Assembly (NCBI RefSeq): GCF_963921235.1
Contig: NC_086097.1
Location: 72,046,001-72,110,000, forward strand
Direction of reading: 5' to 3'
Source: Mobula hypostoma
Lineage: Eukaryota
DNA length: 64,000 bases
The translations under genes and the position numbers were made by a program. How positions within the stretch are numbered: the first letter of the stretch is position 1; every line of letters starts with the position of its first letter. The notes beneath the pieces were generated by a model, which ran no database searches, was not told the origin of the DNA, and worked only from the letters and a program-made list of their open reading frames with translations. Positions 765 to 64,000 of the stretch are shown here, piece after piece.

Positions 765-2780
765 AGTGATAGAGAAGTACAGAACAGAAACTAACCTTCG
801 ACCCATCTAGTCCATGCCATACTCATTTAGACTGCCTACCCCCATCAACTTGCCTATCTCTCCGTACCCCGACTATCCATCTACCTACCCAAGCTTCTCA
901 TAAACTTTGGAATTGAGCTTGCATGCACAACTTGTGCTGACAGCTCATTCCACACTCTAATGACCCTCTGAGTGAAGAAGTTTCCCCTTATGTTTCCTTT
1001 ATACGTCTCACCTTTCATCCTTAACCCATGACCTCTAGTTGTAGTCCCATCCAACCTCAGTAGTAAAAGCCCGCTTATACTTACCTCTCATGACTGGGTA
1101 TATTTCTATCAAATCTCCTCTCAATCTTTTACATATATACGGTCCTAACTTATTCAATCTTTCCTTATAACTCGGGTCTCCAGACCCAGCAACATCCTTG
1201 TAAATGTTCTCTGTACTCTTTCAACCTTGTTTACATCTTTCCTTGTAGATACGTGACCAAAACTGCATACAGTACTCCTAATTAGGCCTCAGCAATATCT
1301 TATAGAACTCCAACATAACATCCCATCTCATGTACTCATTTGATTTATGAAGGCCAATGTGCCAAAAGTTTTATTTAGGACCCTATCAACCTGTGATGCC
1401 CCTTTCAATGAATTATGAACCTGTATTCCCAGATCCTTAGTTCTGCCCTACCGTTCACTGTGTAAGTCCTACCCTGGTTGATCTTACCAAAGTGCAAATC
1501 CTTGCACTTGTCTGCATTAAATTCCATCTGCCATTTTTTCAGCTGATGGAAATTTGTCTGCAAGCCATGATAGCATTTCTCACTGTCAACTACACCCCCA
1601 ATCTTGGTGTCATCCGCAAATTTGTTGATCCAGTTAACCACGTTATCATTCAGATCATTGATGTGGATGACAAACAACAAAAGATCCAGCTCTGATCCCT
1701 GTGCCACACCACTAGTCGCAGGCCTCCAGTCAGAAAGGCAATCCTCTACTACCACTCTCTGGCTTCTCCCACAAAGCCAACGTCTAACTCCATTCACAAC
1801 CTCATCCTGAATGCCAGGTGAATGAACCTTCTTGATCAGCATTCCATTCAGGATCTTGTCAAATATCTTACTAAAGTCCATGTAAACAACATCCACTGCC
1901 TTGTCTTCATCCACTTTCCTTGTAACTTCCTCTAAAAACTCTGTAAGATTAGTTAGACTTGATCTACCTCAGACAAAGCTATGCTGACTATCATTAATCA
2001 GTCCATGTCTATTCAAATAATTATATATCTGGTCCATTAGAATACCTTCCAAAACTTCCGACAACTGATGTCAGACTCACCAGCCCATAACTTCCTAGTT
2101 TCTATTTAGAGTCTTTTTTAAACAGCAGAACAACATTGGCTACCCTCCAATCTTCCGGCACCTCTCCTGTTGCTAAGTATAATTTACATATCTCCGCCAG
2201 AGCCCCGGTAATTTCTACATTTGCCTTTCATAGAATCCAAGGGAAAGCCTTGTCAGGCCCCAGAGATTTATCCATCTTGATTTGCCTCAGGGTAGCAAAC
2301 ACCTCCTCCTCCTCTGTAATCTGTGCAGGGTCCATGAAGTTGATGCCGCTTTGCCTCACTTCTATAGACCCTGTGTCCATCTCCTGAGTAAATACAGATG
2401 CAAAGAATTCATTATGATCTCCTCATATGTTTTGGCTCCACACATGGATTAGCATTCTGGTTTTCCAGAGGGCCAGTTTTTTCTCTTGCAATCCTTTTGC
2501 TCTTAACATGTCTGTAGAATCCCTTAGAATTGTCCTTCATCTTGTCTGCTTTTAGCCTTCCTGGTTTCTTTGCTAAGTGCTTTCTTGTATTTCTTCTACT
2601 CCATAAGCACCTCATTTGTTCCTACTTACCTATATCTGCTAAGAAACTCCTTTTTTCTCTTAACTAGTGCCATAGTATCTCTTAAAAACCAAGGTTCCCT
2701 ACACTTGTTATCTTTACCTTTTATTCTGACTGACACATCCAAGCTTTGTACTCTCAAAGTTTTGTTTTTGAAGGCTCCCA
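765..2780 (-). mobile_element. CR1-type LINE, 5'-truncated, degenerate ORF2 (RT)
   Basis: ORF 1405-1914 has VDVVYMDFSK, SGVAQGS, KFADDTKIGG and WQMEFNADKC. A CR1-type 3'UTR lies near 770-830. Confidence 0.92.
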
Positions 2781-2782
2781 CT

Positions 2783-3320
2783 TCAGAATCAGATTTTTTT
2801 CAGAATCAGTATCAGGATTAATATCACCAGCATATGTCATGAAATTGCAGCAGTACATTGCAATACATAATATAGAAATAAAATTAAATAAGTCAATTAC
2901 AGTAGGTATATATGTATATTAAATAGCAAAATTAAAGAAGTTGCAATAACAGAAATAATATATATTGAGAAAGTGAGGTAGTGTTCATGGGTTCCATGTC
3001 CATTTAGGAATTGGATGGCAGGGGGGAAGAAACTGTTCCTGAATCACAGAGAGTGTCCTTCAGGCTTCTGTACCTCCTTCCTGATTGTAACAATGAGAAG
3101 AGGTCACGTCCTGGGTGTTGGGGGTTTTAATGATTAGCACTGTCTTTTTGAGGCACCAACCCTTGAAGATGTCTTGGATACTTCAGAGACTAGTACCCAA
3201 GATGGAGCTAACTGGTTTTACAACTTTTTGTAGCTTCTTTTGATCCTGTACATTTGCCACACAACAACCACCACACCGCCAACACACCCCCCCCCCGCCC
3301 CATACCAGACTGTGATGCAG
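2783..3320 (-). mobile_element. Rex1/Babar-like LINE 3' fragment
   Basis: CAGAATCAG-type tail and body similar to the copy at 48632-49490. Confidence 0.65.
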
Positions 3321-3552
3321 CCTCTTCCAGGGTGCCTTCAAAAGTGCAAACTGATGACGGAGCAGCTCGATGGATGTGATTAAATATTCCTGTGCTGAGA
3401 ATCACAACTGCATCCAAAGTCTGTACAGTTAATAAAGATGCTTGACAGTGATTGAGCAATCTATTGCTGCTGAAAACCGATGAAAACAATGCCGACTATG
3501 CCACTCATCAAGTACACTTTTGCCAGAAAACAGCCTGTCCTGATCCACACTT

Positions 3553-3750
3553 GTCAGATCCTTTCTGATACCATCAAAATTGGCCTTTCCCCAGTTTAGA
3601 ATCTCAACCTGCTAACCAGACCTATCCTCCTGCATATTTACTTTGAAACTAATGGCATTGTGATCATTGGATGCAAAGTGTTCCCCTACACAAACATCTG
3701 TCACCTGCCTAGTCTCATGCCTTAATAGCAGAACCAGTATCCCAAGCTCT
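3553..3750 (-). mobile_element. CR1 LINE fragment (endonuclease region)
   Basis: Translation VTDVCVGEHFASNDHNAISFK matches the C-terminal SDH-type motif of the CR1 APE domain. Confidence 0.75.
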
Positions 3751-4604
3751 CTGGAATATGAACTGGCTGCTCTAAATTGCCTGTGGTAGGCAAGGGCAAT
3801 AGCAGAGGTATAACTGGCGAGGCAAGAAGTTGGTTCTGCTGGGAATGTGTGAGAATCAAACAGGATAAGTGTCAAAGGTTTGTTCAGACTCAGCGGACTA
3901 AAGGTCCTGTGAAAATGCTGCAGGATTCTTTGATCAACACTGATACAGTGATATACTGTTCAAGAGTTACAAAGTCCAATCAAGAGATTACAAGTTCCTC
4001 CATATCAGATATAAATATATTACAAAGACTGGTGCAGTCGAGGGAGGCTAAACTAGCTAAGGAAGTCAACAGACAAATTGAATCTGTAACACTTGTATAT
4101 GATCACAAAAGATGTTTATAGAAAGTTCCCTCAAAGAGATGAATCAATGTCAGTTAAGTGATTATGTCAAATGATCAGAAGACATCGTGACATCAGGGGA
4201 GATTGTGACATCACTGTGTGTATTAGGTAAACTGCAAACTTCATGTGCAGTGAGAGTTTCTTTACATTAGAGTTAAAATGAATAGTTTTGCTGGAAGCTA
4301 CTCAGCCCAGTTCTTTACCTGAACCACCAGAAGTATCTTAAGGTCCATTTGAAAGTGAATTAGAGTAAAACTTGACAAAGTTTGTAAATGTTTGATCATA
4401 ACCTCAAGTCCCTCCTTCAGATGCAAAATCTATGCTGGAAATGATGAAATATCCCCCACAGGCTGGTGAACATCTATAACATTAAATTGTTACACCTTAC
4501 GAATAATTAGCACAAGCTGCAGAACAATATTAACCTTGCTTTAATAACTAACACAGTGGGGGCAATTGCAAAGTGTGGCACATAATTCAAATTTAAATGA
4601 GCAT

Positions 4605-4840
4605 ACCAACTGGACATTTTGTGCAACACAGGTCCTAAAGAGACATTGGATTGCACAGATGGAGAGAGAATTTAAAAAGTGCGAGTAGGGGCAGCTGGCA
4701 CGTTTTGTGTGCCACAGTTCCAGAGGAGACATTGGTTTGCATAGACTAGAGGGCGAGAGTTTAAAAGAAGCAAGTGGGGGCAGTCGGCACATTTTTGTGC
4801 ACTGTGTTTCCAAAGGAGACATTGGTTTGTACAAAATTAG
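4605..4840 (+). repeat. Imperfect tandem repeat, ~86-90 bp unit, ~3 copies, in the CR1 5'UTR
   Basis: GACATTGG recurs at 4642, 4728 and 4818 with similar flanks. Confidence 0.8.
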
Positions 4841-53533: not shown

Positions 53534-55800
53534 TCAATTTCATGAACCTCCTTTGAACCCTCTTCTGCTTCAACACATCCTTTCTGAGACAAAGGGCCCA
53601 AAACACTCATAATACACCAAGTGAGGCCTCACCAGTGCTTTATAAAGTCTCAGCATTACATCCTTGATTTTATATTCTAGTCCTCTTGAAATTATTGCTA
53701 CCATTGCATTTGCCTTCCTCGTTTCAGACTCAACCTGCAAATCAACCTTTAACGAATCCTGCACAAGGACTACCAACTGTTCTTTTCCAATCATTTCTGG
53801 CCAACTCCTCTCTCATGCCTCTGCAATTCCCTTTACTCCATTGTAATACTGATATATCTGACTTTAGCTTCTCCTTCTTAAATTTCAGGGTGGATTTTAT
53901 CATATTATGTTCACTGCCCCTTAGGGTTCTTCTACCTTAAGCTCTCTAATCAATTCTAGTTCATTACATAACAGCCAATCCAGTATAGCTGATCACCTGG
54001 TGGTCTCAACCAAGAGTTGCTGTAAAAAGCCATCTTGTAGGCATCCTAGAAATTCTCCCTCTTGGAATCCAGCACCATCCTGCGATTTCCTGCATAGTGA
54101 AATCCCCTTTTTTGGCATGCATTTTCTATCTCCCATAATAACTTGTATAGCACATCCTTACTACTGTTTGGAGGGGGTCTGTATATAGTTCTCATCAGGG
54201 TCTTTTTATCCTTGCAGTCCCTTAGCTCTATCCACAATGACTCAACACCTTCACCTGTTATGTCATTTCTTTCTAATGACTTGATTTCATTTTTTACCAG
54301 CTGAACCATGCCACCCCTCTGCCTTCCTGCCTGTCCTTTCAGTACAAAGTGTGTCCTCGGACATTAAGCTCCCAGCTATTATTTTCTTTCAGCCATGATT
54401 CAGGAATGCCTACAATATCATACCTGCCATTCTGTAATTGTCCTACAAGTTCATCAACCTTATTCTCTACATTATATATATATATAAAACACCTTGAGTC
54501 CTCTATTCATCACCCTTTTCGATTTTGTCCACTTTTTACGTTGCAACTGATCCTGGTGACTGCTATTTTTCCCTGTCATCGGCCTCTCCTTGCTAGGAGC
54601 CTCACTACACATTGTCTCGGTATGTAAACCAACTACCTTACCTTCATCATTATCATTCTGGTTCCCATACCCCTGCCAAATTAGTGTAAAACCACCTGAA
54701 CAACTGTGGCCAACCTGTCCACAAGGATATTGGATCTGCTTGGGTTCAGGTATAACCCATCCCTTTTGTACGGGTCAAACCTTCCCCAGAGGAGATCTCA
54801 ATGATCCGGAAATCTGAACCTCTGCCCCCTGCACCAATTTCTCAGCCATGCATTCACCTGCCAAATCATCCTATTCTTACCCTCACCAGCATGTGGCACA
54901 GGCATCAATCCAAAGATGACTACCCTGCAGGTCCTGTTTCTCAGCTTTCTACATAGCTCCCTACAATCCCTCTTCTGGACTACCTCACCTTGTCTGCCTA
55001 TATCATTGGTGCCGATATGGACCAAGACTTCTGGCTGCTCACCCTCACCCTTGAAAATGCCATGGACACAATCTGAGTCAACCCTGATTCTGGCATCAGG
55101 GAGGCAATGTACTATCCCAGTGTCTCTATCGCGGCCACAGAACTTCATGTTCCTCTGACTAAGGAATCTCTATCAACACTGCAGTCCTCTTCACCTCTCT
55201 ACTCTTCAAAGCCACAGCACAGACTCAGTGTCAGAGACTGTGACTCCACCCTGGTAGCTTGACCACGCCCCCTGCCCCCCATCAGTAGCATCTAAAGTTA
55301 TTAGATTATTACTGAGGGGAATGGCCACAAATGTACCCTGCACTGACTGTGCATTTCCCCTCCTTCTCCTCACAGTCACCCAGTTACCTATCACCTGCAA
55401 CCAAGGGGTAACTACCTCCCTGTAGCTCCTGTCCATCACTTCTTCACTCTCCCATATGAGCTGAAGGTCATTGAGCTGCAGCTTCAGTCCCTTAATACGT
55501 TCTCTCAGGAGCTGCAACTCAGTGTGCCTGGTGCAAATGTGTGTATCTGGGAGACTGGAGGTTTCCCAGACTTCCCACCTCCCACACAGGGTACAAAACA
55601 TTGCCCTTGGAGCCATTCTCACTAAACTACCATGCCCTAATAGATGAGGAATGAACAAATAAATATGGAGAAAGAGTAACTTACAAGACAATTTACCTTA
55701 TCCAAGCCTGATCGTGCCTCAGCCTGATGAGCCAAAACCACTCTGAAGGCTGGCACGTTCAAACAGTGGCCACTCCAAGAATGGTCATTCCACCGCACAT
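53534..55800 (-). mobile_element. CR1-type LINE pieces including ORF1 (zinc finger and SGNH esterase) and APE
   Basis: CTLCGRWE...CTRH (55206-55691), VLVHIGTNDIG (54798-55148), ESLWIEL...IYRPP (54046-54309) and LYKALVRPHL (53570-53794). Confidence 0.9.
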
Positions 55801-55804
55801 TTTG

Positions 55805-56173
55805 TTTTGTCTCCAGGGCCCACTTCAGGCTGAAGTCGCGAGCAGCACTGAAGGACCATCGAGAAAGAGCATTCCAGCCATAGGCATTCCTCCCGTGTTT
55901 ATTTAGTTAAGTATTCATTTGTAACATGATTAGTTCTGCAGTTTTATAACCTGGGGAGATTTAATGGAGTATCCATTAAGTTAAAGGGGTTACTGAATGT
56001 TTAGTATTGTAGTTCTATGTAGTCTAGGGTCGTTTAGACAAGCACTTCTTTCGCTAGATGCCCAGGTTAGTATTTTGTGGTTCACTTATAAATAAATAGA
56101 TATTGTACTCATTTGAAATCTGTGCCTTCTGTTTCACTCACTTCCAGAGCCTTGAATCCGTTTCCATGTAACA
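55805..56173 (+). mobile_element. Probable LTR fragment
   Basis: AATAAA near 56091 and a TGTAACA terminus at 56173 that abuts a LINE. The 5' end is unclear. Confidence 0.45.
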
Positions 56174-56730
56174 GCCAGCGATAGTAGTGTCAGCTGCAAT
56201 TTTATAGATGGCCCTTGAGCTGTGCCTAGCTACACAACTGTGGGTGTAGAGAGAGTAAAACAATAGGCTAAGCACATATCCCTGAGTTGTGCCAGTATTG
56301 ATTGCCAGCAAGGAGGAGATGTTATCTCCAATCCATACAGACTGTGGTCTCCCAGTGAGGAAGTCAAGGATCCAGTTGCAGAGGGAGGTACAAGAGGCCC
56401 AGGTTTGGGAACTTGTTGATTAGAAGTGAGGATATGATTGAGTTGAATGCTGAGCTGTAGTCAATAAACAGCAGCCTGACATGGGTATTGTTATTTTCCA
56501 GGTGATCCAAGGCCAAGTGGAGAACCAGGGAGATTGCATCCGCTGCAGCCCTGTTGTGGCAATCGGCAAATTGCAGTAGGTCCAAGTTGCTGCTTAGGCA
56601 GGAGTTGATTCTAGCATGACCAACCTCTCAAAACACTTCATTACAGAAGATGTGAGTGCCACTGGGCGATAGTCATTGAGGGAGCTCACTCTGCTCTTCT
56701 TTGCCACTGGTATGATTGTTGCCTTTTTGA
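56174..56730 (-). mobile_element. Rex1/Babar-like LINE RT fragment
   Basis: DLLQFA...DAISLVLH...VRLLFIDYSSAFNSI (56364-56585). Confidence 0.85.
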
Positions 56731-57567
56731 AACACTTATCCTTCAGTGTTCCCCACACCTGAGTATCCAGACTGAGGTACAGGTCAGATTGCTGTTCTGC
56801 ACCCAGAAATGTCGATGCTCAGAGTGGTCCTTGCACTTTGATTCTACTAGCTGCAAGCAGATCTCCAGCCAACCTTCACCAAAGTCACAGCCCTGCCCTT
56901 AGTTCTTATTGATGAGGCTGCTCTGAACGTTCGTGTGTCCGGATTTTTTGATACTGTCACTACTAACAGTGGGAATACAAGCAGAATCAGTCTAAGGTTG
57001 TAAGACATCTATCAAGTCAAACAACAGGCGTGAAACATTTCAGAGTTGAATTATTTGCTCAGATCATAATTTATCATCTTTCTCATGGCCAAGAGTGGCC
57101 TGTGTAATGTCAGAGAATGGCAGGACATGCAAAGGTCAGGAGAATATTGATTACACCTCAATGATCCATTCCATCATGCCAGTACCTATGTGAATTACAA
57201 AGGGTTCGGCTTAATGCTCAGCTATGCTGTAATTACCAATGCAGACCATATTTCCATAGGTGTAGAAATTGGGCAAGCGGTCTCTTGATTTCCTAGGCAG
57301 CCTCAAGTTCTTAGCAGCAGGTTGCCGAAGTGACTGTGATTAGCCTAAGCAGCCATTTAAATAGTGTAGGATTACTGCACGGCTTTCCATAAATTGGCTC
57401 CAGTGTTTACAAGCACACAGCAACATATCTTCCAGTTTCCAGACTCACATCTTGCAGTCCAGGCTATTATACTTATTGCTTTTACATGGTACTTGGTTTG
57501 ATTATATTTTCATTTTATGTTATATATCAAAATTGCGATATAAATTCATTTGCTCTTCTAAGTGTAT

Positions 57568-58777
57568 TGTGATGGTATTGTGTTTGCTGACCACAAGGTT
57601 GTAAACTCAAAGGCCTTAAGTCCCATCCGCTATAAATAGCCACAAGTACTCTCACTACAGTGAGATGATATTGGGGAGTATAACTGGTTGACTGGCCCAG
57701 AAGGCCTGTAACCTCCTCACATTCTGAAGTAGCCACGATGGAATTCCCTCAGCATCAGCTGTGTGCTGCATACTGCCTGCAAAATCTGAATAGTCAAAGT
57801 TCCAAAAACCTGACAGAATGTTTATGCTGGGGAAGCTCCAGTAGCTTCCTGAACAGGAGCCTATCCCTGTACTCTTTTCCTGGTAATAGTCAATCTTTTT
57901 AGTAATTCTAGTGCAGGTTCCCAAGCATTGATTCTCCAGGCTTTATTAGTACCTCTAGGGTTTACTGGTGTGGGCGCTATCTCAAGTGTGTCTGGAAGGA
58001 ATACATGGTATCCCAATGTGTCAAGTTTAAGATACGTGTCACCAAGTTCTAACACATAAATATGTGGTCCCCACTCAGGTGCTTTGTTTCTATCTAAAAA
58101 GGGGCTAACTTGTTGTCTCCAGGTATGAATTATTGCTGCAGAGCTGGGGTCTGGTACAAATTGCAATGGTCTGGGTTCTGCAGGTTGTACAGCGAGGTTT
58201 GGTCTGTCTAATCTGCATCCTATTCGATGCCCTATCCCTTCATCATTCCAGTCTCTGACTTGAAGGATCAAATATTCATCATGCTCAGTTTGAGGAGCAG
58301 TTTGGGGCATTATCAAGTATTTCTGCAATACTATTAACACATTCATGATATTGACTAGCATTTCTGCTGGAAACCAGGATGTCGTCCATTTTATAGCATT
58401 AGGTGAAGTCCCTTTGCTCTTACTGAGCACACCTTGAGTTGGACTACTGTTAAATAATAATTCTTTCTAAAATAATACTTCTGGTATAACGTGACCATGT
58501 TGGGCACCAACTGTGATGGTATTGGATTTGCTGATCACAAAGTTCTAAACTCAAGCAAAGACCTTAAGTTCTATCCGATGTAAATAACCACAAGTACTGT
58601 CTGTAAAGGGAGATTATACTGAAACTACCCAATTGTCAAAGACTAGTTCTTTTCCCTGTTTATTCTCCACAGTGAGCTCCACTACTTGAGTGGTGGGTCC
58701 ACCCACCCTACCAAGGAGGAGATACTTCCAGCTAACAAAATAGTTTAAAACACAGTTCATTTATTTTCAGTGATACA
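57568..58777 (-). mobile_element. Short LTR element with tRNA-Lys PBS; candidate foamy-like endogenous retrovirus remnant
   Basis: Direct repeats start TGTGATGGTATTG at 57568 and 58512 (about 110 bp clearly similar). Minus-strand TGGTGCCCAACATGG follows the 58512 repeat. An internal ORF is present. Possible TSD TGTAT/TGTTT. Confidence 0.6.
57861..58430 (-). CDS. Putative retroviral Gag N-terminal-like ORF (first in-frame ATG at 58361)
   Basis: 189-codon open frame just downstream of the PBS, unrelated to the LINE motifs in this window. Spaced motifs HDE, LILQ, LDRP, WGP and GDTY recall spumavirus Gag. Confidence 0.4.
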   Translation of the reverse strand: MLSKSKGTSPNAIKWTTSWFPAEMLVNIMNVLIVLQKYLIMPQTAPQTEHDEYLILQVRDWNDEGIGHRIGCRLDRPNLAVQPAEPRPLQFVPDPSSAAIIHTWRQQVSPFLDRNKAPEWGPHIYVLELGDTYLKLDTLGYHVFLPDTLEIAPTPVNPRGTNKAWRINAWEPALELLKRLTITRKRVQG

Positions 58778-59653
58778 TGTTTAAATCTGAACAACATTCT
58801 TAAAATACATTTAAAACTCACAGATGATTTCTACTTTATAAAACATTTCCAAGTTGCAAACCATTTCTGAAACATTCCAGAGCACAGGTATAAATCTTGC
58901 AAACTAACAAGGCATACCAACGAAGCAGATGAATAAATCGTCTATTGCAGAAACAGAAGTTGGAGGAATGGATTCTAATTCACTCCATTTTTCTTTCATG
59001 CTTCTTGATGTTCCTTATCTCATTCCCAATAAGCCTGAACTCCTCTCTATACTTATGCGGTTTCTTTGCCATTTGTGTGACTTCGCACTTGTATGATATT
59101 CCCTCAGATACCCTTTTTACACAAAAGGTCTAAAAGATTTTTGGAGACATAGTTTCCAACTACCCACAATTAATGCTGTAACACCATCTTCTCTGAGTAC
59201 ATAAAAGTACCAACTTATTAACAGATCAGTTATTGATATGCTAAGTGATTTGTTTCCACCTGGTTTGCAAGCTTCCTTGACCGAAGCAACAGGGTCAGTG
59301 TCGTCTATTTTGAAACAAGCCAAAGTAAATAACCTATTATCTTATGCTGCACCTTTTGAGCAGCAGTAAACCAGATGCAGTGTGCTAGCAATCTGCTCTA
59401 TAGACAGTGCTTCGTTTTAACTTCAAACTGATTACATGCTTGTCATTTACATTTTAAGAACTGTAGATGGCTCCTGTTTCTTGTCAACTGTAGCTAGTAG
59501 TGTTTGATTTCATATCTATGGTTTGTCATGGCAAGATGAGCTGAATGAAAGCTTCAGATCTAAAACTGAAAATGTTGATCTATATGGAGGTCGGACAGAG
59601 TCTACACAAAGAGATCGGAAACAGTATTTCTGCTCAATGATCTGGCCTGAATA

Positions 59654-59967
59654 GTTCCCCCCCCCCTTGTCTTTCTTCCCGGACCTCCTGTCCCATGATC
59701 CTCTCATATCCCCTTTGCCAATCACCTGTCCAGCTCTTGGTTCTATCCCTCCCCCTCCTGTCTTCTCCTATCATTTTGGATCTCCCCCTCCCCCTCCCAC
59801 TTTCAAATCCCCTACTCACTCTTCCTTCAGTTAGTCCTGACGAAGGGTCTTGGCCCTAAACGTCGACTGTACCTCTTCCTAGAGATGCTGCCTGGCCTGC
59901 TGCGTTCACCAGCAACTTTGATGTGCGTTGCTTAAATTTCCAGCATCTGCAGATTTCCTGTTGTTTA
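59654..59967 (+). mobile_element. Penelope pseudo-LTR copy (same young family as 50106-50410)
   Basis: Close reverse complement of 50106-50410. Contains an HHR-like motif at 59832-59869. Confidence 0.92.
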
Positions 59968-60071
59968 CAGAGTCAAACATTATATTGCCTTTCTTAACCA
60001 ATGTTATTTGAGCACCTTATTGACAAAGAAAGGTTTCTGATTGAGATGAAGATAAAAGGATCTATTTCATT

Positions 60072-62270
60072 AAGACCATAAATCATATAAGCAGAATTAG
60101 GCCACTTGGCCCATCAAGTGTGACATGCCATTTGATCATGGCTGATTTATTTTCCCTGTCAGTCTCATTCTTCTGCCGCCTCCCCACAACCTCTGATGTC
60201 CTTACTCATCAAGAACCTGTCAACCTCCACTTTAAATACACCCAATGACTTGGCCTCATTAGCTGTCTGTGGTTAAGGGTTTCACAGATTCATCACCCTC
60301 TGACTAAAGAAATCCTTTAAATCTCTGTTCTAAAGGGATGTCTTTCTATTCTGTGCTGTGCCTTTTGGTCCAAGAACCTTCCACTCCACGTACACTCTAT
60401 CTAGGCCTTATAACATTCAGTAGGTTATGAGAGATCCCATTCATGCTTCTGCACTCCAGCGAGTACAGGCCAAGGGCCATCAAGTACTCTTTATATGTTA
60501 ACCTTTCATTTCTGGGAATTTTCTCATGAACTTCCTCTAGATTCTCTCCAATGCCAGCACATCATTCCTTAGTTATGGGACCCAAAACTGATTGCAGTAC
60601 TCTGAATGTGGTCTGGCCAACGTGTTATAAAGCCTCAGCATTTATAATCAAGTCTTCTTGAAATGGATGCTATCATTATATTTGTCTTCCTTCCTGCTGA
60701 CTCAACCTGAAAGTTTACCTTCAGAGAATCCTGTGCTAGAACTTCCCAAGTCCCTTTGCACCTCTGATTTCTGAACTCACTCCCTCTTCAGAAAATAGTC
60801 TATGCCTTTTCTCCTTCTACCAAAGTGTGTGACCATACAGTTCCCTACAGTGTATATTCCATTTGCCACTCTATTCCTCATTTTCCTAATTTGTCCAGGT
60901 TCATCTACAGACCCGCTGCTTCCCCTACACTACCTTGCCCTGCACCTATCTCTGCATCATCCACAAATGTGGCTACAAAGCCACCAATTCTGTCATGAAG
61001 ATTGTTAACACATAATGTACCAAGTAACAGTCTTACGTTGATCCCTGCTGAACACCATTAGTCACCAGCAGCCAACCAGAAAGGGTCCCTACTATTCACT
61101 CTCTTTAGCATCTGCCAGTCAGCCAATCTTATGTCCATACTACTATCTTTCCCATAATGCTGTGGGCTCTTATACTGTGGAGGAGACTCACATGTAGCAT
61201 CTTGTCAAAGGCCTTCTGAAAATCGAAGTAAACAACATCCACTGACACAAACACGAGGAAATCTGCAGATGCTGGAATTTCAAGCAACACACATAAAAGT
61301 TGCTCCCTGGCCTGCTGCGTTCACCAACGTCCATTGACTTTCCTTTGTCTATCCTTCCTGTTATTTTCTCAAAGAATTCCAACTGATTTGTTTGGTGAGA
61401 TTTCCCCTTAAGGAAAGTATGCTGACTTCAGCCTATTTTATCATGGACTCCAAGTACTCAGAATCTTCATCTTTTATAATGGACTCCAACATCTGACCAA
61501 CTACTGAAGTCAGTCTAACTAGCCTACCATTTCCTGTCTTTTGCCTCTCGCCCTTTCTAAAGAGTGTAGTGACATTTGTGATTCTTGAAATATCACTAGT
61601 AATACCTCTACAATCTCTTCAGCCACCACTTTCAGAAACTTGCGGTGTAATCCATCTAATGCAAGTGACTTATCTACCTTCAAATCTTTCTATCATCGTC
61701 CCTTCTAATGTGGCCTTCTAATCAAATCCGGCCAGCTCCTCTCTCATGCCTCTATAGTTACCTTTACTGAACTGCAATACCAATTCATCTGATTTTAGCT
61801 TCTCCCTCTCAAACTCCAGGGCGCTTTCTATCATATTTACTTTAAGCTCCCTAATAAAATCTGGTTCATTGCACAATACTCAATCCAGATTTGTCTTTTC
61901 CTTAGTAGGCTTGATCTGCTCTGAAATGCTATCACTAGGTATTCTACATATTTCTTCTCTTGGGGTCCAGTACCAACCTGAAATCCCCCATGGCCATTCT
62001 AACATTCTCCCTTTTACATGGCTTTTCAATCTCTCTTTGTAATTTCAATCCACCAGAGTTCTGCATATAACTCCCATCAGGCTCTTTTTACCCTTGAAGT
62101 TTCTTAACTCTATCCACAAGGATTCTACATCTTCTGATTCTATGTCACTTCTTTCAATGGATTTGATTTCATTTTTTACCAACAGAGCCATTCCACCCCC
62201 TCTACTTAGGTGTCTGTCCTTTCGACGCCATGTGTACCCTTGGATGTTAAGCTCCCAGCTTCTTTCAGCC
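60072..62270 (-). mobile_element. CR1-type LINE, internally deleted
   Basis: 3'UTR at about 60075-60140, RT region, and APE-like GGGMALLVK...ESLWIEL (62045-62317). Confidence 0.85.
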
Positions 62271-62610
62271 ATGACTGTGAGAACAGCTGAGAGGATCATA
62301 GGGGACATCGGGGACATTTATCAGGAGCGCTGCATATGCAAGGCCCGTAGTATTACTAAGGATCCCACCCATCCACCCATCTATCCAGCATCCTCCTTGA
62401 CTTTCTACCATCAGGCAGGAGACTACAATGCATAAAATCAAGAACGGTCAGGATGAGAAACAGTTTCTTCTCCCAGGCTATTAGGCTTCAGGACTCCCAG
62501 CCACATCATATTCAAAGTGTCACTGGCTAATCTATTACGTACCTTACAATATTTAATATTAATGCATTTCAGTTTGTTATTTATATGTGATTCATCTGTA
62601 GATTCAATCC
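62271..62610 (+). mobile_element. Rex1/Babar-like LINE 3' fragment
   Basis: VRTAERIIG...KARSITKDPTHP and a RMRNSFF-like segment. Confidence 0.75.
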
Positions 62611-62627
62611 TTCCCTTCATAAATTAT

Positions 62628-64000
62628 CATGTGTTTCGCCATGTATTCAACCTGAGCCTGAGGCTCCGGAGGGTTCCTGTGCTGTGGAAGACGTCCTGCC
62701 TCGTCCCTGTGCCGAAGACGCCGCACCCCAGCGGCCTCAATGACTACAGACCGGTGGCATTGACCTCCCACATCATGAAGACCCTGGAGAGACTTGTTCT
62801 GGAGTTGCTCCGGCCTGTAGTCAGGCCACACTTAGATCCCCTCCAGTTCGCCTACCAGCCCCGACTAGGAGTTGAGGATGCCATCGTCTACCTGCTGAAC
62901 CATGTCTACGCCCACATAGACAAGCCAGCGAGCACTGTGAGGGTCATGTTTTTTGACTTCTCTAGTGCGTTCAACACCATCCGCCCTGCTCTGCTGGGGG
63001 AGAAGCTGACAGCGATGCAGGTGGATGCTTTCCTGGTGTCATGGATTCTTGATTACCTGACCAGCAGACCACAGTACATGTGCTTGTAACACTGTGTGTC
63101 CGACAGAGTGATCAGCAGCACTGGGGCTCCACAGGGGACTGTCTTGTCTCCCTTTATCTTCACCATTTACACCTTGAACTTCAACTACTGCACAGAGTCT
63201 TGTCATCTTCAGAAGTTTTCTGATGACTGCCATAGTTGGATGCATCAGCAAGGGAGATGAGGCTGAGTACAGGGCTGCGGTAGGAAACTTTGTCACATGG
63301 TGTGAGCAGAATTATCTGCAGCTTAATGTGAAAAAGACTAAGGAGCTGGTGGTAGACCTGAGGAGAGTTAAGGTACCGGTGACCCCTGTTTCCATCCAGG
63401 GGGTCAGTGTGGACATGGTGAAGGATTACAAATACCTGGGGATACGAATTGACAATAAACTGGACTGGTCAAAGAACACTGAGGCTGCCTACAAGAAGGG
63501 TCAGAGCCGTCTCAATTTCCTGAGGAGACTGAGGTCCTTTAACATCTGCCGGACAATGCTGAGGATGTTCTACGAGTCTGTGGTGGCCAGTGCTATCATG
63601 TTTGCTGTTGTGTGCTGGGGCAGCAGGCTGAGGGTAGCAGACACCAACAGAATCAACAAACTCATTCGTAAGGCCAGTGATGTTGTGGGGATGGAACAGG
63701 ACTCTCTGACGGTGGTGTCTGAAAAGAGGATGCTGTCCAAGTTGCATGCCATCTTGGTCAATGTCTCCCATCCACTACATAATGTACTGGGTGGGCACAG
63801 GAGTACATTCAGCCAGAGACTCATTCCACCGAGATGCAACACAGATCATCATAGGAAGTCATTCCTGCCTATGGCCATCAAACCTTACAACTCCTCTCTT
63901 GGAGGGTTGGACACCCTGAGCCAATAGGCTGGTCCTGGACTTATTTCCTGGCATAATTTACATATTGCTATTTAATTATTTATAGTTTTATTCCTATTTA
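62628..64000 (+). mobile_element. Rex1/Babar-like LINE, 5'-truncated, young (RT)
   Basis: [44 protein letters not shown] and YKYLG. Only one stop (63089) and one frameshift (about 63225) are visible. Confidence 0.93.

Follow-up and report, generated by a model that had tools for sequence, protein, structure and literature searches.

What kind of element underlies a stretch of about 1.2 kb in the genome of the cartilaginous fish Mobula hypostoma was the question raised by this locus. The window, that is, the whole stretch of DNA that was analysed, comprises 64,000 nt (NC_086097.1, positions 72,046,001 to 72,110,000). The original prediction, made from the letters of the window, described positions 57568 to 58777 on the minus strand as a compact, gag-only, non-autonomous foamy-like element with LTRs of about 266 nt, a lysine-type primer-binding site (PBS) and an open frame resembling foamy virus Gag. 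Our analysis indicates that the window from about 59479 to 57568 (minus strand) is very probably a fossil, internally deleted provirus from a class III endogenous retrovirus (ERV) family of foamy-like, spumavirus-related character. The features of this copy are listed in Table 1.

The basic layout was confirmed when the window was read directly. On the minus strand, a repeat terminates in ...CCATCACA at 58512, a PBS begins two bases further on, an open frame follows, and a second copy of the repeat ends with the same ...CCATCACA terminus at 57568. The AATAAA expected in the upstream repeat was present, not once but twice (Table 1). The proposed length of the LTRs did not hold. The repeated stretch is limited to 58621-58512 and 57673-57568, about 106-110 nt with 80% identity (80.0% over 110 columns). 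The remainder of the proposed 266-nt pair (58777-58622 against about 57830-57674) gave no convincing alignment, and it found no counterpart upstream of 57673.

Table 1. Features of the foamy-like ERV copy, in coordinates of the 64-kb window
Feature	Position	Strand	Remark
5' LTR	58512..59479	-	Recognisable part about 970 nt; the unit 59479-58513 recurs in the genome
AATAAA, candidate polyadenylation signal	58659..58664	-	About 150 nt before the LTR end; R/U5 region inferred
Second AATAAA	58765-58760	-	Read from the sequence
PBS, tRNA-Lys(CUU) (Lys1,2) type	58492..58509	-	13 of the first 15 positions match; last 3 nt mismatch
Open frame, 189 codons, GTG start	57861..58430	-	Remnant of the gag N-terminal part; premature stop at its end
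Start of spumavirus Gag central domain homology	57689..57795	-	About the first 35 residues; frame differs from that of the ORF; cut by the deletion
Deletion junction	57674..57688	-	About 15 nt from the end of gag homology to the start of the LTR fragment
Terminal ~106 nt of LTR (U5 end, ...CCATCACA)	57568..57673	-	3' LTR remnant of the same provirus or piece of another copy

The LTR is considerably longer than the repeated stretch. When the unit 59479-58513 was used to search the genome, homology ran to 59479-59460 in 27 of 39 non-self places, and 26 of the 39 reached the 3' end. None of these 39 places could be extended against the window 5' of 59479; other family copies share about 90-130 nt more on the 5' side of their LTRs. 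From these alignments, the LTR of the family is about 1.0-1.1 kb long. The true 5' edge of the window's 5' LTR lies somewhere within 59480-59656, where the sequence is too diverged or truncated for placement. The AATAAA at 58664-58659 was kept in 17 of 31 aligned copies and the one at 58765-58760 in 16 of 31. Because family homology continues to 59479, 58777 is not an LTR boundary, and the target-site duplication proposed next to it (TGTAT/TGTTT) is therefore void. No target-site duplication can be read in the window copy since the 5' edge of its 5' LTR is not placeable. An intact provirus has two full LTRs and a target-site duplication; in the window copy, the 3' LTR is down to about 106 nt. 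Directly upstream of the element, at 59657-59966, lies a repeat of about 310 nt that is 90-93% identical in three of the genomic loci compared (L002, L009 and L011). This repeat, far younger than the ERV family, is probably of SINE or LINE-tail type; it gave no Rfam match, nor did any other part of the window from 54000 to 64000.

The PBS was also as predicted. Two bases past the LTR end, TGGTGCCCAACATGG at 58509-58495 matches the 15-mer of the Lys1,2 PBS at 13 of 15 positions, and both mismatches are CpG transitions (CpG to TpG or CpA). It is the only site with two or fewer mismatches in the 64-kb window, against a chance expectation of 0.04, and four of 100 shuffled sequences gave one such site. 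The host genome contains 18 exact sites for the 15-mer complementary to the PBS, compared to one for the reversed control, and the four loci examined (4/4) were all tRNA-Lys(ctt) genes ending in that sequence. The site could be aligned in 34 of 45 distinct family loci, with variation concentrated at the CpG positions. By sequence complementarity, the PBS fits the 3' end of the host's own tRNA-Lys(CTT). One genomic region (G000:C12:116457380-116527296) carries nine exact tRNA-Lys(CTT)-type 3' ends within 70 kb and is presumably a tRNA gene array; one of the nine was confirmed by ARAGORN.

A search of the 3.48-Gb assembly with the 1210-nt stretch containing the LTR end and gag gave 3538 first-look candidates, and the 40 places that were scored were 72-81% identical and spread over many contigs; the identity of family copies to the window was typically given by the range 72-77%. 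First-look candidates numbered 4641 with the LTR as query and 2106 with the integrase (IN) region, for which each of the 150 places scored was significant. In no case among the 40 matches scored for the 1210-nt stretch did the alignment continue collinearly beyond the junction to 57673-57568. Of the 19 loci compared, 15 had their main alignment to the window end precisely at 57689, one of them with a further alignment reaching 57668, and in a sixteenth it ended at 57668. It is possible, from these few alignments to 57668, that there is microhomology at the deletion junction. All 19 loci stay mutually similar past the window breakpoint, through the gag-central region, pol and further sequence, and seven 10-kb loci have a further 4-6 kb in common. 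In one family copy (L025), about 1 kb around the gag-pol boundary is duplicated in tandem (2625-3581 and 3654-4633, 75% identity).

Since all 19 compared loci continue beyond the breakpoint, the window copy lost its interior by a private deletion and does not represent a gag-only design. A compact element of about 1.2 kb, with LTRs of about 266 nt and spreading as such, would account for a direct repeat whose two copies end in the same ...CCATCACA, at 58512 and at 57568, and for the PBS and ORF that they enclose. This explanation is very improbable given that the repeat covers only about 106-110 nt, the LTR extends to at least 59479, no scored match crosses the junction and every locus compared continues into sequence absent from the window. 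Of the original description as a gag-only, non-autonomous foamy-like element, the foamy-like character thus stood at the family level (see below), and the gag-only design, which the other scored copies lack, did not.

Another possible explanation is that two unrelated fragments were juxtaposed by rearrangement or by nested insertion and loss: a 3'-truncated provirus ending at 57689 and the last ~106 nt of the LTR of another copy. Identity between the 3' fragment and the 5' LTR end of the window copy is 80.0%, hardly more than the 79.6% that the fragment reaches with the closest of 24 other copies (median 75.2%), and the 5' LTR segment is closer to some other copies (up to 82.7%), which would fit two fragments, as does the lack of an available target-site duplication. 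However, in an old burst, the divergence of an LTR pair is expected to be about the same as that between copies. The two pieces also share their orientation and stand in the correct order, the 3' fragment stops exactly at the LTR terminus, and the possible microhomology seen in the alignments to 57668 fits a single deletion. We consider such a juxtaposition unlikely, although it carries more weight than the compact element. We infer that both LTR pieces come from one provirus, which is the simpler reading.

The family is old. The LTR pairs of two other copies were 78% and 75% identical. With substitution rates of about 1-2.5 × 10^-9 per site per year, as given in PMC10699275, an LTR-pair divergence of 20-25% suggests an age in the order of 50-150 million years (roughly 10^8), a rough figure that is inflated by CpG decay. 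None of the loci retrieved contained a complete provirus with two LTRs: the 3' LTRs of L025 and L023 are truncated, and that of the copy on contig C40 is interrupted.

The open frame between the two LTR pieces was examined as a possible gene. Searching the genome with its protein gave 374 first-look candidates, and all 150 scored places were significant (34-73% identity), nearly all of them with in-frame stops. A domesticated, gag-derived host gene under selection would explain why the window frame is open over the full 189-codon query, unlike other places that span most of it: among the 149 other scored places, those spanning most of the frame carry stops, and the longest stop-free alignment covers about 148 of 189 codons. 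Several features of the frame make this hardly credible. Its stop falls where sister copies read on, and there is another stop and a frame change before the breakpoint. Over residues 23-42, approximately, six or seven other copies use another frame. The GTG start corresponds to an ATG in only one of six copies, so the start is not conserved. The frame is 63-68% identical in amino acids to its closest relatives at best, which is about the divergence among those relatives themselves. In addition, with thousands of copies, some frames would be expected to stay open by chance. The 189-codon frame is a chance survivor and not a working gene, and the window copy is dead, as is evident from CpG decay, the premature stop and the frame shifts.

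The resemblance of this ORF to the N-terminal domain of prototype foamy virus (PFV) Gag, which the original prediction drew from short motifs, found no support in any of the searches. Pfam scanning of the ORF returned no families at E<=10, and the search of the genome with the foamy Gag N-terminal profile (PF03276, Gag_spuma_N) gave no matches from three candidates. With phmmer, the ORF had only chance-level matches to PDB sequences. A profile built from 20 Gag N-terminal sequences of the family retrieved no Gag from the PDB sequences and nothing from the longer proteins among 5.8 billion. Against 1.84 billion representatives, it gave two matches only, P0002 (4739 aa, with 15 matching stretches) and P0003 (95 aa), and neither linked it to a foamy Gag. 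P0002 is a predicted protein whose gene model probably strings together many ERV fragments. The AlphaFold2 model made from the same 20 sequences was of low confidence (pLDDT 49.6), and Foldseek found nothing at E<=0.001 for it in the PDB or BFVD.

The foamy affinity of the family was seen in the parts of gag and pol that the window copy has mostly lost. The profile of the foamy Gag central domain (PF20672, Gag_FV_central) matched three places in the genome above its 30-bit cut-off (37.7, 35.8 and 30.1 bits) and none in 14 control genomes, and all three places are copies of the window element's family. In one long copy (L058), of which positions 1-1605 align with window positions 59309-57691, the PF20672 match begins at 1501, about 100 nt before the point that matches the window breakpoint. 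Pfam scans of single sequences detected PF20672 in 4 of 16 aligned members and no other family (best 38.8 bits, E 9.3e-10). A profile made from the 16 Gag-central sequences did not retrieve PFV Gag from the PDB, and a single-sequence match to 5m1h reached only E 0.63.

The strongest matches came from Pol. The reverse transcriptase (RT) fragment of the C40 copy (L061), with X placed at stops, matched the foamy protease-RT structure 7o0h with 89.6 bits (E 2.3e-24) and the foamy entry 7ksf with 78.8 bits (E 4.6e-21). The next matches were gammaretroviral RTs (MLV/XMRV) at 24 bits, a foamy preference of 65 bits, and no Ty3/Gypsy RT appeared among the matches at E<=1. This assignment is a comparison of bit scores on a sister copy of the window element, not a phylogeny, and ERV-L references are absent from the PDB. 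Within these terms, the RT sided with foamy viruses and not with Gypsy or another non-spuma group, and the class proposed in the original prediction stood. For the same copy, all five matches of the RT fingers were to foamy viruses, and all five matches of RNase H (23 bits) were to foamy-virus entries, as judged by molecule names or shared entries. The IN core of another copy (L021) matched PFV integrase with 34.3 bits (E 1.8e-7), with HTLV-2 next at E 0.35. The retroviral integrase C-terminal SH3 domain (SH3_11, PF18103) was seen in L027 with E 2.9e-4, below its cut-off. A search of 5.8 billion proteins yielded a single long one, the nearest relative, which has both the foamy protease family (PF03539, Spuma_A9PTase) and PF18103.

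Other searches for foamy domains were negative. Pfam found no families in the RT-bearing fragments with X at stops, despite their strong matches to PDB sequences. The genome had no matches to the foamy A9 protease (PF03539) and none to foamy Env (PF03408), the latter in a search whose first look was stricter and may miss weak matches. The ~2.7 kb located 3' of IN in the C40 copy, which is common to other copies, had no Pfam match. The expectation that longer copies would carry pol and env was therefore met for pol and not, at the level of the foamy Env profile, for env. In the seven long loci, 88 open frames reach 70 aa or more; among these, where decayed frames could hide a knuckle, zf-CCHC was detected only at L026:6266-8503, which belongs to a younger inserted element. 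This element occupies L026 4606-9531 (G000:C45), inside a family copy, and has 849-nt LTRs that are 97.4% identical. Its 746-aa open frame shows zf-CCHC at E 1.1e-5 together with a weak SCAN-like match, and the element has no relationship to the foamy-like family.

The absence of foamy Env, protease and Gag N-terminal profile matches in the genome could mean that the family is not strictly foamy-like but another class III (ERV-L-like) ERV, or a Ty3/Gypsy element with convergent weak matches, and an RT comparison by scores and not by a tree, against a PDB that has no ERV-L, leaves some room for this. Even so, this alternative is improbable. Gag_FV_central exceeds its curated cut-off in three copies and in none of the controls, the RT prefers foamy viruses by 65 bits over the next genus with no Ty3 at E<=1, the IN prefers PFV, the Lys1,2 PBS is typical of foamy viruses and the spumavirus protease family is present in the closest Pol of the databases. 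Taken at the family level, that is, from Gag-central, RT, RNase H and IN sequences of sister copies, the foamy-like affinity is supported.

The long copies differ in how much of pol they retain. Among seven distinct copies that still have the RT motif preceding the palm, six have lost the same stretch of about 73 residues, which contains the catalytic palm. L021, L025, L026, L027 and L060 lack about 880 nt that are present in the C40 copy and that encode the RT fingers and palm; this stretch matches foamy RT residues 121-214 and 254 onward. The C40 copy (L059/L061) is the best-preserved pol copy. In its RT/connection region, at about 650-1800 of L061 in the orientation of the element, there is an insertion that looks like a non-LTR retrotransposon, with open frames resembling a LINE-type RT. 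The commonest form of the family seems to be a non-autonomous, RT-deleted derivative, which was presumably copied in trans.

These findings can be combined with the Gag results into a broader account that we offer tentatively and regard as somewhat less probable than its converse. A spumavirus-related lineage may have become an abundant intragenomic retroelement mainly as a derivative from which the fingers and palm of the RT and part of the protease region were missing; it would have depended for copying in trans on less common autonomous relatives, of which C40 would be one. Its Gag would combine a foamy-type central domain with an N-terminal domain that has no detectable relative and that might be a new fold for the Env-contacting part of Gag.

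For the window copy itself, the preferred reading of a deleted provirus implies the following history, in which the replication steps are modelled on those of foamy viruses. In the active virus, the host's tRNA-Lys(CUU) would have primed minus-strand DNA synthesis at the PBS after the ~1-kb LTR. Its Gag would have contained a central (capsid-like) domain of foamy type, and its Pol would have comprised RT, RNase H and an integrase resembling that of PFV. Copies of the virus would have been inserted throughout the genome. In the window copy, most of the 5' LTR, the PBS and gag sequence equivalent to the first ~250 codons are still present. The rest of gag, pol and all but the last ~106 nt of the 3' LTR would have been lost later, in a deletion of several kilobases private to this copy.

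The origin of retroviruses is dated with the help of foamy-like ERVs from basal vertebrates. Where the shark elements, as far as their published descriptions go, have been classified on Pol alone, the present family, with its many copies, its Lys1,2 PBS and its recognisable foamy Gag central domain, contributes characters at the level of Gag. For genome annotation, an apparent 189-aa ORF becomes a retroviral relic, and attention is drawn to a large repeat family in which an RT-deleted subfamily predominates.

ERV-L and other class III elements are a spuma-related pol lineage that was amplified inside genomes. The window family is like them in having no env detectable here and differs in its foamy-type Gag central domain. 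Compared to the prototype and simian foamy viruses (Spumaretrovirinae), the scores for RT (89.6 bits), IN (34), RNase H (23) and Gag central (38.8) point to foamy proteins, and the family shares their tRNA-Lys1,2 PBS and long (about 1 kb) LTR. In contrast to these viruses, the family is endogenous, high-copy and decayed, and it shows no profile matches for the Gag N-terminal domain, protease or Env; no accessory genes or internal promoter were recognised in it.

The closest comparison is with elements already reported from cartilaginous fish. Foamy-like ERVs of the elephant shark (CmiFLERVs), defined by RT, have been published (Aiewsakun and Katzourakis 2017, PMC5512871) and are also treated in Han 2015 (PMC4422223). 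Lys-type PBSs are reported for fish foamy-like ERVs and most mammalian foamy viruses (PMC5512871), and spuma-type ERVs in Chondrichthyes include ERV-Spuma.0-Sca of the small-spotted catshark (PMC10699275). By their published descriptions, the CmiFLERVs and ERV-Spuma.0-Sca are like the window family in having a Pol (RT/IN) closest to that of foamy viruses and ancient, defective copies in a large vertebrate genome. The family is a further foamy-like ERV of this kind, which makes it a sound annotation and no surprise; it differs from these relatives in that its Gag central domain passes the Pfam cut-off and that most of the copies examined carry a common protease-RT deletion.
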